A DNA stretch of 64,000 nt from a bacterium UBP2_UBA2255 (GTDB taxonomy: Bacteria > Edwardsbacteria > AC1 > EtOH8): NCBI GenBank assembly GCA_002347565.1, contig DDXR01000049.1, positions 42,302-106,301 of the forward strand. Direction: 5' to 3'. This document shows, piece by piece, positions 21,714 through 61,594 of the stretch. The position numbers and the translations under genes were made by a program. Below the pieces are notes generated by a model. The model did no database searches, had not been told where the DNA came from, and saw only the letters and a program-made list of their open reading frames with translations. Every line of letters starts with the position of its first letter. The first letter of the stretch is position 1.

Positions 21714-23689
21714 TGTGCGGCATTCTGGGTCTGATCCAGCGGCCCGACCGGGCGGTCGACGTCGGCCGGTTCGCGGAATCCCTGCAGTCGATGCGCCACC
21801 GCGGGCCCGATGGCGAGGGCATCTACCTGCTGAACTCGGCCTCCGGCGCCGGCGCAGCCTGGGCTGGCAGCGACACCGATCCCCGGCTCCGGCTGCCGGC
21901 GGTGGCCGGTGCCGCCGGCAGCCGGGCCAATATCGCGCTGGGGCACCGCCGCCTGGCGATCATCGACCTGTCCCCCTCGGGCCATCAGCCGATGGCCAGC
22001 CGGGACCGCCGGCAGTGGATCGTCCTGAACGGTGAGGTTTACAATTACCGCGAATTGCGGAGCGAGCTGCGCGGCCGCGGCCATTCCTTCGTGTCATCAT
22101 CCGATACCGAGGTCGTGCTGGCCGCCTACCGGGAGTGGGGGCCGCTGTCGGTCGGGCGGTTCGTGGGGATGTTCGCCCTGGCGATCATCGACATCCCGCG
22201 GCGCGCTGTTTTCCTAGCGCGCGATCATTTCGGCATCAAGCCGCTCTACTACGCATTCGACGGCCGGCAGCTGGCGTTCGCATCCGAGATCGGGCCGCTG
22301 CTGCGGCTGCGCGGCGGGCGGCCCCGGATCGATCCCCGGCGCACCTACGAATACCTGCGGTACAACCTGTCGGACTACGGCGATGCCACCATGTTCCAGG
22401 GGATCTCCCAGTTGCCGACGGCGAGCACCATGGAGCTGTCCTGGGAGGACATGCGGCTGTCCGGGCCGACCGCCTACTGGCGGATCGACGGCGTTGCGCC
22501 GAGCGACATCGGCCGGCCGGAGGCGGCGCGCGAGCTGCGGCGGCTGCTCGAGGAGAGCGTCGGGTACCATCTCCGAAGCGATGTGCCGGTCGGATCGTGC
22601 CTGTCCGGCGGCCTGGACTCCAGCGCCATCGTCGCCATGATGCGCCAGCGCCTCGGGCCGCGGCGGTCGATCCAGACGTTCAGCTACGTCAGCGATGACC
22701 GCCTGTTGTCCGAGGAACGCTACATCGACATGGTCAACGGCGCCAACGCCTGCGTCCCCCACAAGACGACGATCTCACCGGACGAGCTGGCCAGGGACCT
22801 GGACAGCTTGATCCGGGTGCAGGAGCTGCCGTTCATGAGCACCAGCATCTACGCCCAGTACCGGGTCTTCCGGCTGGCGGGTGAATGCGGCATCAAGGTG
22901 ATGCTGGACGGGCAGGGAGCGGATGAGCTGTTCGCTGGCTACCTCAACCTGCTGGGGGCCAGGATCACGGCGCTGCTGGCCGGCCGCGACTGGTCCGGGG
23001 CCCGGCGGCTGTGTCGCGCGGTGCCGCTGAACATGGGCGGCTATCGCTTCGGCATGCTGGCGACAGCGCTCGGCCGGCTGGCGCCGGCCAGGCTCCATGG
23101 CCAGATGATGGCGGCGGCCGGGCAGCCGATCTGGCCGTCATGGCTGAACCCCGGATGGTTCGCCGAACGGGGCGTGGCGGCGGCGCCCCGGGCTTATGGG
23201 CGGGGGAGACAGGCGCTGCGCGAGGAGCTGCGACTGGCGATCGAGCAGGCGAGCCTCCCCAACCTGCTGCGCTTCGAGGACCGGAATTCAATGGCCCATT
23301 CGATCGAAAGCCGAGTTCCGTTCTGCAACCACCGGCTGGCGGAGTTCGCTTTCTCGCTGCCCGATGATTACCTGATCGACGGCAGCGGGACGACCAAGGC
23401 GATCCTCAAGCAGAGCCTGGGGGGGGTGCTGCCGGAGGAGATCCTCAACCGGGAGAAGGTCGGGTTCGCCGTGCCGGAGCGCCGCTGGGCGGTGCAGCTG
23501 GCCCCGTGGATCGAGCGCATCCTGGCCGGCGCCCACGACGATGGATTTCCGATGCTCGATCTGCCCAAGGTCAGGAAAACCGTGCGGCGGCAGATGGAGG
23601 ACGGACGCCGACACCTGCTGGGGGAGAGCTGGCGGATCGTGCTTTTCATCCGCTGGGCGGCGATCTGGGGCGCCGATGTCGCTGCCTGA
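21713..23689 (+). CDS. asnB: asparagine synthase (glutamine-hydrolysing) family amidotransferase, AsnB/WbpS-like
   Basis: N-terminal MCGI nucleophile, class II GATase domain, SGGLDSS PP-loop; ATG overlaps upstream stop (TGATG). Confidence 0.85.
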   Translation: MCGILGLIQRPDRAVDVGRFAESLQSMRHRGPDGEGIYLLNSASGAGAAWAGSDTDPRLRLPAVAGAAGSRANIALGHRRLAIIDLSPSGHQPMASRDRRQWIVLNGEVYNYRELRSELRGRGHSFVSSSDTEVVLAAYREWGPLSVGRFVGMFALAIIDIPRRAVFLARDHFGIKPLYYAFDGRQLAFASEIGPLLRLRGGRPRIDPRRTYEYLRYNLSDYGDATMFQGISQLPTASTMELSWEDMRLSGPTAYWRIDGVAPSDIGRPEAARELRRLLEESVGYHLRSDVPVGSCLSGGLDSSAIVAMMRQRLGPRRSIQTFSYVSDDRLLSEERYIDMVNGANACVPHKTTISPDELARDLDSLIRVQELPFMSTSIYAQYRVFRLAGECGIKVMLDGQGADELFAGYLNLLGARITALLAGRDWSGARRLCRAVPLNMGGYRFGMLATALGRLAPARLHGQMMAAAGQPIWPSWLNPGWFAERGVAAAPRAYGRGRQALREELRLAIEQASLPNLLRFEDRNSMAHSIESRVPFCNHRLAEFAFSLPDDYLIDGSGTTKAILKQSLGGVLPEEILNREKVGFAVPERRWAVQLAPWIERILAGAHDDGFPMLDLPKVRKTVRRQMEDGRRHLLGESWRIVLFIRWAAIWGADVAA

Positions 23690-41388: not shown

Positions 41389-41814
41389 GTGACCGATCAC
41401 GATCAAGTTGTGACCACGCTGCCGGTCGTCATTGCGATCGCCCTCCTGCTCCTCTGTTGCGCAGGCGGAGCGACCTGCGGCGATCGTCAATCGGCCGATG
41501 CCGGCAGCGACACGCTGCGGCTCGACCTGGGCTGTGCCACGGCGCGGAGCCGCAGCCTGGTGCGGCTGCTGTCGCAGGACGGGATCGCGGTCACCGCCAT
41601 CGATATCGGCAGGTCCGGCGAGACTGCGGTCCGCGTGGCGATGACGGCGGAACGGTTCCGGTCGTTGTTCGGCGGCACGGTTGCTGCACGGAACGTCGCC
41701 CGCAGTTCGGGTGACGGCTTCGTCAGCCAGCGGTATATCGTGGGATACTCGGCCCCCCAGCGCTACCGGCGTGCACTGCGCTGGATCCGCCTGCCCGACC
41801 CGCAGCTGGAATGA
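41389..41814 (+). CDS. hypothetical lipoprotein
   Basis: Signal peptide with LLLCC lipobox-like sequence; no family recognised; GTG start 4 nt after peptidase stop. Confidence 0.45.
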   Translation: MTDHDQVVTTLPVVIAIALLLLCCAGGATCGDRQSADAGSDTLRLDLGCATARSRSLVRLLSQDGIAVTAIDIGRSGETAVRVAMTAERFRSLFGGTVAARNVARSSGDGFVSQRYIVGYSAPQRYRRALRWIRLPDPQLE

Positions 41815-41829
41815 CGCAGCGCCCGGCGA

Positions 41830-41862
41830 TAAAAAACCCCGATGATCGCTCATCGGGGTTTC
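41830..41862 (+). terminator. intrinsic terminator (AAAAAA-CCCCGATGA-TCGC-TCATCGGGG-TTT), potentially bidirectional
   Basis: 9-bp perfect stem flanked by A-run and short T-run. Confidence 0.6.
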
Positions 41863-41876
41863 CCAGTTGAGAACCG

Positions 41877-42056
41877 GGTGGCTAGCTCCGGGCCTAGGTG
41901 TTTCCAGAGTACCGGATACCGAAGCACCGTTTCTCCAGAGTCCCAAGTCACCGGATTCCGGGGTACCGGGGAAGGTACCACACTCCAACGTTAGGTTGAT
42001 TCACGGGTTGCCGTAACGACCAGTGTCCCACCAGTAGTACATTGGAGCTAGCCACC
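41877..42056 (+). ncRNA. candidate structured non-coding RNA (~180 nt) closed by a perfect 13-bp helix GGTGGCTAGCTCC / GGAGCTAGCCACC; identity unknown (6S-like size)
   Basis: Exact 13-nt inverted repeat 41877-41889 vs 42044-42056 enclosing a region with local hairpins (CCGGattCCGG, ACGGgttgCCGT); no ORF with RBS; lies between terminator and ispG; strand not established. Confidence 0.3.
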
Positions 42057-42193
42057 ATCCAATCGCATTATAGCCACGGATCGCCGCTTTGTCAAGTGGC
42101 ATTCGTCCGATTTTTCACTTTTTCCCTGCATCGCCGCCAACCTGTTCTATCTGTGAGTTTTCTGTTGCAAACCCGGTGCGGAAGGTCTATAAT

Positions 42194-43318
42194 ATGACGA
42201 TGAGTCGAAACGATGGGACCGTGCGCCGGCGCTCCGCGACCGTCCGGATCGGATCGGTGACCATCGGCGGCGGCCGGCCGGTGGCGATCCAGTCGATGGC
42301 CAGCACCGACACCAGGGATGTCCGGGCCACGCTGGCCCAGATCCGGCGCCTGCAGAGGGCCGGCTGCGAGATCGTCCGCCTGGCGGTGCCCGACCGCGCG
42401 GCCGCCGCCGCCCTGAAGCAGATCCGCGCGGGGACCGCGGTCCCCCTTGTTGCGGACATCCACTTCGATCACCGGCTGGCGCTGGCGGCGCTGGATGCCG
42501 GAGTGGACAAGCTGCGGATCAATCCCGGGAACATCGGGCCGATTGAAAATGTTCGAGAGGTTGTAAAGGCTGCAAAGGTTCGCAAGGTTCCAATTAGAAT
42601 AGGGGTCAATGCCGGGTCGCTGGAGCGGGACATCCTGCGCAAGCACGGGCGCCCGACCGCGGCCGGCATGGTGGAAAGCGCCCTGCGGCATGCCCGGATG
42701 CTGGAGCGGCTGGACTTTCGCGGCATCGTGCTGTCGCTCAAGGGCTCGGACGTGCCGATGACCATCGCCGCCTGCCGGCTGATCGCCGGGAAGGTCCCCT
42801 ATCCCCTGCACCTGGGCGTCACCGAGGCGGGGACGGCCTTCGCCGGTGCGGTGCGATCGGCAGTGGGCATCGGGACCCTGCTGGCCGAGGGCATCGGCGA
42901 CACCATCCGCGTGTCGCTGTGCGGCGACCCGGTCAGGGAAATGGAGGCCGCCAAGCTGATCCTGCAGTCGCTGGGCCTGCGCAGCTTCGGCCCGACCGTG
43001 ATCGCCTGCCCCACCTGCGGCCGCTGCAGCATTGACGTCGAGAAGATCGCCCGGCGCGTGGAAGCGGCGGTCAAAGGGATCGGGCGGCCGCTGAAGATCG
43101 CGGTGATGGGCTGCGCGGTCAACGGGCCGGGCGAGGCGCGGGAGGCCGACGTCGGCATCTGCGGCGGCCGGGGCCGCGGCGCGCTGATCCGCAGGGGGAG
43201 GGTCGTGGCGACGGTGCGGGAGCGGGAGCTGGTGCCGGCCCTGCTGCGGGAGATCGCGGCACTGTCCCGGGGACGCCGCGCGTCCCCGAAGAACCAGAAC
43301 CAACGAACGACGGGATAA
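42194..43318 (+). CDS. ispG: 4-hydroxy-3-methylbut-2-en-1-yl diphosphate synthase (flavodoxin)
   Basis: GcpE motifs (IQSM, RINPGNIG, CPTCGRC, VMGCAVNGPGEA); ORF extends upstream to 42089, ATG 42194 chosen. Confidence 0.9.
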   Translation: MTMSRNDGTVRRRSATVRIGSVTIGGGRPVAIQSMASTDTRDVRATLAQIRRLQRAGCEIVRLAVPDRAAAAALKQIRAGTAVPLVADIHFDHRLALAALDAGVDKLRINPGNIGPIENVREVVKAAKVRKVPIRIGVNAGSLERDILRKHGRPTAAGMVESALRHARMLERLDFRGIVLSLKGSDVPMTIAACRLIAGKVPYPLHLGVTEAGTAFAGAVRSAVGIGTLLAEGIGDTIRVSLCGDPVREMEAAKLILQSLGLRSFGPTVIACPTCGRCSIDVEKIARRVEAAVKGIGRPLKIAVMGCAVNGPGEAREADVGICGGRGRGALIRRGRVVATVRERELVPALLREIAALSRGRRASPKNQNQRTTG

Positions 43319-44741: not shown

Positions 44742-45527
44742 ATGAAGTTCCTGCAGATCGACTATATCACGGAAAACCTCCACACCCGGTCCATCGGAAA
44801 GAAACTGACCTATTTCGAGCGGCTGGACTCGACCAGCGCCAGGCTTTCCGCGCTGGCCGCCGATGGCGCCGCCGAGGGGACGGTGATCATCGCCGAGCAG
44901 CAGACGGCGGGCCGGGGCCGCACGGGCAGCGCCTGGTACTCGCCCCCCGGCGCCGGCCTGTACTTCTCCGTCCTGCTGCGGCCGGGGCTGCCGCTGATCA
45001 AGCTGTCCGGGTTGACCCTGGCGCTCGGCCACGCCGCGGCCACGGCCGTCGAGGCGGCCGCCGGCGCCGTGATCCAGGTCAAGTGGCCCAACGACCTCTA
45101 CTGCAACGGGCGCAAGTGCGGGGGCATCCTGGCCGAGGCCGGCGCCGGCGACGGGCCGCCGGTCGTGGCCGGGATCGGCATCAACGTCAACAACGACTTC
45201 CTGCCGCTCGAGCTCTGCGAGAGCGCGACCTCGCTGCGGCTGGAAACGGGCCAGTCGGTGTTCCGCGAGGGGCTGCTGGTGGCGCTGCTGGCCGCGATCG
45301 AGCGCGACTACGGCCTGTTCCGCAGCGACGGGCTGGCGCCGTTCCTGGAGCCGCTGCAGGCGAGGTCCTTGCTGGCCGGCCGCCGGGTGGTGGTCGAGGG
45401 CGAGGGCGGGGTCGCGGCCGCCGGCGTGGCGACCAGGTTCGACGGCCATGGCGCGCTGCTGCTGATCAATGAAAAGGGGGAGACGATGCGAATGACATCC
45501 GGCACCGTGCGGGAGGTCGGCGAATGA
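44742..45527 (+). CDS. birA: biotin--[acetyl-CoA-carboxylase] ligase (group I, no HTH domain)
   Basis: GRGRTGSAWYSP biotin-binding loop motif (GRGRxG), C-terminal SH3-like domain. Confidence 0.85.
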   Translation: MKFLQIDYITENLHTRSIGKKLTYFERLDSTSARLSALAADGAAEGTVIIAEQQTAGRGRTGSAWYSPPGAGLYFSVLLRPGLPLIKLSGLTLALGHAAATAVEAAAGAVIQVKWPNDLYCNGRKCGGILAEAGAGDGPPVVAGIGINVNNDFLPLELCESATSLRLETGQSVFREGLLVALLAAIERDYGLFRSDGLAPFLEPLQARSLLAGRRVVVEGEGGVAAAGVATRFDGHGALLLINEKGETMRMTSGTVREVGE

Positions 45528-48077: not shown

Positions 48078-48164
48078 GCCGGGATGGTGGAATTTTGGTA
48101 GACACGTACGTTTGAGGTGCGTATGGCGCAAGCCATGTGGGTTCAAGTCCCACTCCCGGCACCA
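48078..48164 (+). tRNA. tRNA-Leu (anticodon GAG), class II with long variable arm
   Basis: Manual fold: 7-bp acceptor GCCGGGA/TCCCGGC, 3-bp D stem, anticodon stem TACGT/GCGTA with loop TTGAGGT (U33, G37), variable arm ATGGC-GCAA-GCCAT, T arm GTGGG-TTCAAGT-CCCAC, discriminator A, encoded CCA. Confidence 0.8.
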
Positions 48165-55921: not shown

Positions 55922-56554
55922 ATGAAAAAAGAGATCCCATTGGCCATCACCTTCCTGACCGGCCTGATCATCGTGGTCACGTTCTTCATCCCCCACCAGC
56001 CGCTGGGGACGATGCAGCAGCGGCTGCTGATCTGGTACTCGATCGTGCTGGGGTTCACCATGCTGCTGGGCGTGGACAGCTTGCTGCGCAGCAACCTCAA
56101 GCGGCTGGTGGGGCGCACCCCGGGATGGCCGTACGCCGCAGTGCTGCTCGCCGGGTTCGCGTTCACCCTGGCGGCCGGGATCTACAACTGGGCCACCACC
56201 AGGTCGCTGCTGACCCTGGGGTCGCCGTTCATGTTCGTCTACACCTTCGTGATCGTGCCCCTGCAGGCGACCATGTTCGCGGTGCTGGCGTTCTTCATCG
56301 CGTCGGCCGCCTACCGCGCCTTCCGGGCCCGCACCCTGGAGGCGACCCTGCTGCTGGTCACCGCCGCCATCGTCATGATCGGGCGGGTGCCGGTGGGGGC
56401 CGAGCTGTGGGACAAGCTGCCGGTCCTGGCCGACTGGATCATGGAGGTCCCCCAGATGGCGGCCAAGCGGGGCATCGTCATCGGCGTGGCCCTGGGGACC
56501 ATCGCCATGTCGCTGCGGGTGATCCTGGGCCTGGAACGGACCTACCTGTCATGA
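55922..56554 (+). CDS. hypothetical polytopic membrane protein (~6 TM)
   Basis: Hydrophobicity pattern; no family recognised. Confidence 0.5.
   Translation: MKKEIPLAITFLTGLIIVVTFFIPHQPLGTMQQRLLIWYSIVLGFTMLLGVDSLLRSNLKRLVGRTPGWPYAAVLLAGFAFTLAAGIYNWATTRSLLTLGSPFMFVYTFVIVPLQATMFAVLAFFIASAAYRAFRARTLEATLLLVTAAIVMIGRVPVGAELWDKLPVLADWIMEVPQMAAKRGIVIGVALGTIAMSLRVILGLERTYLS

Positions 56555-59851: not shown

Positions 59852-61594
<1,743 letters not shown>

Follow-up and report, generated by a model that had tools for sequence, protein, structure and literature searches.

The small RNAs that sequester a protein by means of many copies of a short motif appear to be the closest, in architecture, to the element described here. 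A repeated motif at near-constant spacing wraps around an oligomeric RNA-binding protein or loads several of its subunits, as in TRAP with GAG/UAG repeats and Hfq/Crc with A-rich motifs. Our element is next to ispG in a 64,000-nt stretch of an Edwardsbacteria genome (contig DDXR01000049.1, assembly GCA_002347565.1), called the window below, and it would differ from these RNAs in its motif, in its strict 8-nt period and in a closing helix. A first-pass annotation, made from the sequence letters alone, had marked 180 nt at 41877-42056 as a candidate structured RNA. Very probably, the element belongs to a real, conserved small-RNA gene, absent from the catalogues and read from the minus strand in a subclade of Candidatus Edwardsbacteria. 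The whole explanation, in which this gene acts as a multivalent binding platform, is put forward tentatively and with slightly more doubt than confidence.

The closing helix and its conservation among relatives

The 13-bp inverted repeat was exact, as first annotated: GGTGGCTAGCTCC (41877-41889) and GGAGCTAGCCACC (42044-42056) are reverse complements separated by 154 nt. By itself this repeat is weak evidence because chance produces many of them. For perfect 13-bp inverted repeats within 200 nt, a first-order Markov simulation of the window gave a mean of 0.75, and 41% of the simulated windows had at least one; the real window had four distinct ones. The other three (13-14 bp) were at 21889-21925, 44947-45148 and 55991-56113. 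The first and the last of these are in G+C-rich sequence and the second is, by coordinates, inside the birA open reading frame (ORF), which shows that chance or coding sequence can produce repeats of this kind here. The repeat beside ispG becomes significant only through its conservation and covariation in relatives.

Homologues were collected from the ispG loci of relatives and from one metagenome pattern scan, giving seven in addition to the window. IspG of the window was 100% identical to proteins on Logan contigs from two samples, and its closest named relatives were in Candidatus Edwardsbacteria assemblies. Representative GTDB genomes had only IspG matches of at most 62% identity, from other phyla and with no useful synteny. 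The ispG gene was 80-81% identical in loci L083, L084 and L085, and 71% identical in L089, L212 and L213. The remaining homologue, L097, was on a 1.7-kb metagenome contig and was found by the scan with the terminator pattern. In all seven loci fetched through ispG, among which the flank of L097 is not counted, the RNA was beside ispG and divergent from it. It was single-copy and syntenic in loci from several samples and assemblies, and searches of the window by pattern, by blastn and by profile found it only once. At 69-71% ispG identity, four loci (L087, L088, L210 and L211) had no such RNA beside ispG.

The two arms of the helix were observed to change together across these homologues with pairing kept. 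Judged from these sequences, the helix is therefore real and acts at the single-strand level. In the RNA sense of the minus strand, the 5′ arm GGUGGCUAGCUCC (42044-42056) pairs with the 3′ arm GGAGCUAGCCACC (41877-41889) in the window, L083 and L097. In L084 the pair is GGUGGCUGGCUCC / GGAGCUAGCCACC, in which an A-U becomes a G-U; read on the plus strand, this position would have C opposite A, a mismatch. In L085 it is GGUGGUUAAGCUCC / GGAGCUUACCACC, in which a C-G becomes U-A and one 1-nt bulge is added. L089 and L213 have GACGGCCAGCUCC / GGAGCUGGCCGUC, and L212 has GACGGCUAGCUCC / GGAGCUAGCCGUC. In the alignment of these sequences (A3), 4 of the 13 pairs varied on both sides, one went to G-U and 96-98% of the cells were paired; the few unpaired cells came from the L085 bulge, and no slid register came close. 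At least four of the compensatory events were independent. The structured non-coding RNA closed by a 13-bp helix that was proposed at first pass is thus supported by conservation and compensatory changes in eight homologues; a lack of expression on both strands together with a lack of conservation or covariation in related genomes had been named there as telling against it. Both strands folded better than shuffled sequences (z = -3.4 for the plus strand and -4.0 for the minus strand).

The RNA itself was 89-92% identical among the window, L083 and L084. In the same three loci, identity was 87-93% at codon positions 1 and 2 of ispG, 70-82% at its third codon positions and 61-69% in the spacer between the two promoters of the intergenic region. 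As the RNA exceeds both the third positions and the spacer, it is, by this sequence comparison, under purifying selection.

Searches elsewhere added no homologue beyond L097. The metagenome scan with the terminator pattern returned at least 120 loci, and among the matches listed the only true homologue was L097. Plasmids and phages, searched in distant mode, had nothing similar. Viral contigs had 7 pattern matches, which we regard as chance because the family profile gave weak matches to four of them, over the pattern region, and none to the others. Dozens of metagenome contigs among L090-L209 (for example L090, L093, L096, L108 and L109), many of them labelled human gut and unrelated to this lineage, had an equal profile score over 31 nt. 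This stretch matches CCCCGATGAG....CATCGGGG and a T-run; it is probably a common terminator of one abundant gut species that shares with our RNA only the stem sequence. The P0008 locus ended 73 nt upstream of ispG. The P0007 contig (JGI sample 3300075153; IspG 78% identical) had a 665-nt gene-free gap upstream of ispG, with room for a homologue.

Promoter, terminator and a predicted minus-strand transcription unit

A promoter on the minus strand at 42067-42095 is directed into the element. It matched the consensus at 12 of 12 positions in a scan of that strand, with TTGACA (42095-42090), a 17-nt spacer and TATAAT (42072-42067), and it places the predicted start at about 42061-42058, some 3-4 nt ahead of the helix. 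The pattern TTGACA-N16-18-TATAAT occurred at this one site in the 64 kb and not once in 100 shuffles. The perfect promoter was kept in all seven homologues with an intact 5′ side, and A/T-rich tracts preceded the -35 box in all of these. In the window, the A-rich tract GGGAAAAAGUGAAAAAUCGG (RNA sense; 42107-42126, minus strand), ~47-66 nt upstream of the predicted start, may serve as an UP-like element of the promoter.

At the other end, the linker CGGUUCUCAACUGGG (41862-41876, minus strand) separates the closing helix from an intrinsic terminator (41831-41861, minus strand), AAACCCCGAUGA-GCGA-UCAUCGGGGUUU followed by UUU to give a run of six U. The terminator hairpin (41861-41834) is G+C-rich with 9-12 bp, and its tail is U6 on the minus strand versus only UUU on the plus strand. 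It was missed by a simple terminator scan and was taken from an inverted-repeat pair and the minus-strand reading. Its 9-bp stem, CCCCGAUGA/UCAUCGGGG, was unchanged in all eight homologues, with a variable loop. The linker was 16-19 nt long in all of them when counted up to CCCCGAUGAG, and its sequence varied between clades. Transcription of the convergent plus-strand gene with its end at 41814 is probably stopped by the same terminator as well.

The promoter, the hairpin with its U-run and the separate ispG promoter described below point to a minus-strand transcription unit divergent from ispG. Its predicted transcript would start at ~42060, ahead of the helix by a few bases, under a promoter of perfect consensus and stable-RNA type, and would end at ~41831 at the conserved hairpin and U-run, giving a primary transcript of ~230 nt. 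For the RNA we favour the minus strand, since the promoter, the U-run and the G-U pair of L084 all point there; both expression and the position of the ends are predictions. A minus-strand RNA had been among the alternatives of the first-pass annotation. That annotation had also placed the element between an intrinsic terminator and ispG. The position (between the hairpin at 41834-41861 and ispG at 42194-43318) stands, whereas the terminator belongs to the minus-strand unit. Likewise, its limits are those of the core, and the unit is larger, including the promoter at 42067-42095 and the tail to ~41831.

The promoter of ispG, TTGCAA-N17-TATAAT at 42165-42193 on the plus strand, was conserved and lies downstream of the element. 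Its TATAAT (42188-42193) directly abuts the annotated ATG at 42194, and a second in-frame ATG is at 42200, 6 nt downstream. In the three closest relatives the ATG is 3-7 nt past the -10 box (L083:3960-4010, L084:2420-2455 and L085:3900-3935). Because the ATG stands 0-7 nt from the -10 box in the window and these relatives, ispG is probably translated from a leaderless mRNA in this clade. The annotated start of ispG in the window may be two codons too early.

The same perfect TTGACA-N17-TATAAT, with A/T-rich sequence upstream, drives tRNA-Gly genes in L087:5993-6021 (plus strand), L210:8249-8277 and L211:8340-8368 (both minus strand). No such RNA was beside ispG in the loci of P0009, P0014 and P0021 (69-71% identity), whose perfect promoters drive tRNA genes. 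Full-consensus promoters seem to be reserved for stable RNAs in this lineage. The shared use of this promoter with tRNA-Gly suggests, by analogy, that our RNA is transcribed like a stable RNA. Downstream of the tRNA-Gly gene of L087 (6030-6270, plus strand) are two tandem copies of ~85 nt, in each of which the tRNA 3′ end CGCCCGCUCCA is followed by terminator-like hairpins. Their appearance is that of scars left when something integrated repeatedly at the tRNA, or of a terminator module that was duplicated. In the window, a tRNA-Leu(GAG) gene at 48078-48164 (plus strand) was the sole Rfam or ARAGORN match in the 64 kb.

The distance from the -10 box to the helix varied: 10-11 nt in the clade of the window, 35-37 nt in the L089 clade and 149 nt in L085. 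Helix-to-helix size was 166-203 nt across homologues. Given this variable distance to the promoter, the conserved module is the helix-enclosed core. In clades with 5′ leaders (35-150 nt) the helix may be a processing stalk, and it would then probably mark the ends of the mature, processed RNA.

The extra segments between promoter and helix have features of their own. The segment was ~149 nt in L085 (3656-3800, minus strand) and at least 79 nt in L097 (1-78, plus strand; contig end). The two share a near-identical stretch of ~40 nt, CAACAUCUAUUAACUCU(U/A)GACGGAGGUAAUGAUGC, that can fold into a hairpin hiding GGAGG-AUG. Next to it is a predicted ORF of 15-16 codons (MMLRTKKQIFPIDGG, MMRQLKKIIFHPWCGG) with its stop, UAA or UAG, inside the 5′ helix arm. 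The 35-37-nt leader of the L089 clade has an A/G-rich run (AAAGAAAAAG, AGGAAAA or AAGGAAA; L089:3788-3822, L212:1829-1863 and L213:975-1010, minus strand). This run and the U/C-rich linker directly on the 3′ side of the helix (UUUUUCUUU) are complementary, so in this clade the helix may reach further, across a 17-nt bulge.

An array of eight-nucleotide units in the interior

The 154-nt interior (41890-42043, minus strand) is an array of 11 YYGG cores. In the homologues the interior was 139-177 nt long and was dominated by these cores, with 11-14 observed in each versus 3.8-5.1 ± 1.6 in dinucleotide shuffles, where ~4.7 ± 1.6 would be the chance expectation. Their spacing was mostly 8 nt, with some cases of 7, 16 or 24. 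The invariant columns of alignments A2 and A3 were the GG, an A two positions on and a C two more positions on, which defines the unit YYGG-N-A-N-C. Units in the window include CCGGUACC, CCGGAAU, CCGGUGAC, UUGGGACU, CUGGAGAA, UCGGUAU, CCGGUACU and CUGGAAAC. Eight full matches to YYGG-N-A-N-C fell within 80 nt at 41890-41969 (minus strand), compared with a mean of 0.28 ± 0.57 over the window and 4 in the next-best case. A second motif cluster at 60455-60534 (minus strand) was dismissed, being within coding sequence. The number of units differed between clades while the positions of GG, A and C stayed fixed; variation in unit number around a fixed core resembles the pattern seen in sponge RNAs. 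A segment, GUGAAUCAACC, was conserved in the window, L083, L084 and L097.

Since YYGG is self-complementary when G-U is allowed, two adjacent units can fold into a 4-bp hairpin with a loop of 3 or 4 nt, for example UAAC, UGAC or AAU. One local hairpin was CCGG-AAU-CCGG in the window, CUGG-AAU-CCGG in L083, L084 and L097, and UUGG-NNNN-CCAA in L089, L212 and L213, its homology between clades being approximate. Alternatively, the units can zip into long imperfect arms, as was predicted for the L089 clade.

At the DNA level, the internal features of the first-pass annotation were all present: the palindromes CCGGATTCCGG (41951-41961) and ACGGGTTGCCGT (42004-42015), GGTACC at 41964-41969 and 41976-41981, and the CCAGAGT(A/C)CC motifs as direct repeats CCAGAGTACC (41904-41913) and CCAGAGTCCC (41935-44). 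The G+C content of the element was 0.54-0.58, versus 66% for the genome. Mechanical ORFs of 43-50 amino acids do overlap the element, for which the annotation had stated no ORF with a ribosome-binding site. They are implausible as genes because of the 8-nt periodicity of the interior and its 1-nt length difference among close relatives (153 versus 154 nt).

Alternative explanations and comparison with known RNAs

The RNA was observed to match no family in Rfam 15; the search covered the whole window at gathering score, positions 41700-42300 at E <= 10 and seven homologous loci at E <= 1. Apart from tRNAs it returned only weak matches to small-RNA families, located on the terminator hairpin or adjoining it; the weak matches on the hairpin, to terminator-bearing families, were mostly on the minus strand. 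This agrees with the first-pass annotation, in which no known family had been recognised. In the literature on non-coding RNAs of Edwardsbacteria or on repeat-array small RNAs we found nothing relevant.

A base-pairing regulatory small RNA, in which GUGAAUCAACC or the repeated units would pair with target mRNAs while helix and terminator only stabilise, would have the typical anatomy seen here (own promoter, intrinsic terminator and intergenic position) and a candidate for pairing in the segment kept in four homologues. That segment was not retained in the clade of L089, L212 and L213, however; all clades conserve a periodic GG/A/C pattern and no single seed, and a small RNA that acts through a seed is not typically ~230 nt long with a promoter of stable-RNA type. 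We consider this explanation unlikely. Somewhat more unlikely still is another housekeeping ribonucleoprotein RNA, either a highly divergent 6S RNA acting as RNA polymerase decoy or a Y-RNA-like partner of a Ro-type protein. The helix-to-helix size, the pairing of the ends in a closing helix and the very strong promoter of tRNA type would agree with such an RNA, and 6S RNAs of distant phyla can escape sequence models. Yet no match to 6S (RF00013 or RF01685), 6S-Flavo, Y RNA or YrlA was found at any of the Rfam thresholds above, and both single-sequence and consensus predictions gave multi-branched or two-armed folds, not the single extended rod and large central bubble of 6S RNA. Ro-binding stems typically have bulges, and the closing helix, a perfect 13-mer, has none; within ~4-5 kb there is no rsr-like gene, no TROVE/Ro domain was found among the neighbour genes, and an 8-nt repeat array is foreign to the 6S and Y RNA families. 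The 6S-like identity entertained at first pass was therefore not borne out. Two further candidates were rejected: a CsrB/Rsm sponge, as GGA was not enriched over shuffles and no Rfam Csr/Rsm model matched, and a retron msr/msd, as no reverse transcriptase domain was listed among the neighbours (~2.5-4 kb upstream and 4-5 kb downstream).

Were the element part of a plus-strand RNA, the candidates would be a riboswitch or long 5′ leader of ispG, the leader having been considered in the first-pass annotation too, or the 3′ untranslated region of the upstream gene by read-through of the hairpin. The plus strand folds about equally well, and a hairpin with only UUU on that strand could leak. The conserved ispG promoter, however, is downstream of the element and ispG appears leaderless, which removes the leader; ahead of the element there is no promoter on the plus strand, the perfect and conserved one points the opposite way, the L084 variant would break a helix pair on that strand, and no riboswitch family matched in Rfam. 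A plus-strand element is thus very improbable. The least probable explanation, hardly to be credited, is a DNA-level feature, either a miniature inverted-repeat transposable element (MITE), intact or as a remnant, or a set of sites at which a DNA-binding protein would bind between the divergent genes. In its favour would be the perfect 13-bp inverted repeats at the two ends, the low G+C content (0.54-0.58 against 0.66 overall) and the palindromic CCGG and GGTACC sites. The element is present in one copy in the window, however, with nothing similar in plasmids, phages and viral contigs, and it keeps the same syntenic position where ispG is only 71-81% identical. There is no target-site duplication, as the flanks ...GAACCG / ATCCAA... 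share no direct repeat, and the 8-bp period is unlike the DNA helical repeat. The arms co-change with pairing kept, including a G-U, as expected of an RNA and not of transposase-binding ends.

Several points weigh against a minus-strand RNA that serves as a binding platform. The transcript and its ends are predicted from sequence. Folding energy gave no strand preference (mean difference -1.4 kcal/mol, with a sign that differs among homologues), and beyond promoter and terminator the strand call comes down to one G-U wobble and one hairpin of uncertain homology between clades. All members of the family that were found belong to one narrow subclade (ispG at least 71% identical), and the four loci at 69-71% have none beside ispG. 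Predictions of the interior fold by RNAalifold disagreed, whether made from all sequences or from separate clades, and eight sequences in two or three clades give almost no covariation power. GGA, the CsrA motif, was not enriched (4-9 per homologue versus 3.7-5.5 ± 1.4 in dinucleotide shuffles), GGU stands in place of GGA in about half of the units, and the conserved GG may be inside stems, not exposed. No candidate partner gene is linked to the locus, where the neighbours are S8 or SDH-type peptidases, a small lipoprotein-like ORF, ispG, a membrane protein, birA and coaX.

For the minus-strand small RNA, we propose that its 5′ and 3′ parts would pair as the 13-bp helix around 140-180 nt of degenerate YYGG-N-A-N-C units, which would fold either as short hairpins, of 4 bp and a four-base loop each, or as long imperfect arms in which the units zip together. 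The RNA would then be a multivalent platform for a candidate RNA-binding protein, with the logic of CsrB/RsmZ or CrcZ and a different motif. Multivalent protein binding, as sponge or scaffold, is by analogy a possible mechanism more than a probable one, and abundance and protein binding are both predicted steps. A stronger form, which we regard as doubtful, is that this is a new class of abundant stable RNA in Candidatus Edwardsbacteria, in which an 8-nt array looped by a helix titrates or scaffolds a global RNA-binding protein that has escaped recognition.

Post-transcriptional regulation in the Fibrobacterota-Chlorobiota-Bacteroidota (FCB) group and in candidate phyla is poorly understood. 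Bacteroides is reported to lack Hfq and CsrA, the classical global RNA binders (PMC13370968), and it is only recently that RRM-type proteins were implicated (PMC11697453; PMC13370968). A strongly promoted, conserved repeat-array RNA could be a concrete starting point from which to identify a new regulatory RNA and its protein in an uncultivated phylum, and would add an RNA family missed by current databases. If the stronger form above is true, the FCB group would have a regulatory system like Csr/Rsm or TRAP with a new motif and a new protein. If the function is more ordinary, the locus would still be a clean case in which promoter and terminator logic together with covariation assign the strand and limits of an orphan intergenic element.

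Compared with known RNAs, the element resembles 6S RNA in the size of its core (166-203 nt), in the pairing of its ends in a closing helix and, as a prediction from its very strong promoter, in its expected abundance. It differs from 6S RNA in its repetitive interior, in matching no covariance model and in having no rod with a central bubble. With the bacterial Y RNAs (YrlA/Yrn1) it shares a 5′/3′ closing stem around a multi-hairpin module and a similar size range, whereas it lacks their bulged Ro-binding helix and tRNA-like module, and its neighbourhood has no rsr gene. The resemblance to TRAP-binding segments and CrcZ is architectural only, in that a short motif recurs at near-constant spacing over tens of nucleotides. 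The period here is 8 nt, compared with 5-6 nt for TRAP and triplets for the distal face of Hfq, the motif differs, and no such protein is linked to the locus. The CsrB/CsrC and RsmX/Y/Z RNAs are similar in being independently transcribed, ~100-350 nt long and ended by an intrinsic terminator, and in carrying many short degenerate repeats on small hairpins, in a number that varies between species around a fixed core. In our RNA the core is YYGG-N-A-N-C with a regular 8-nt period and not A(N)GGA, and its 5′ and 3′ parts form a 13-bp helix that encloses the array, whereas the Csr/Rsm RNAs are without such a helix.

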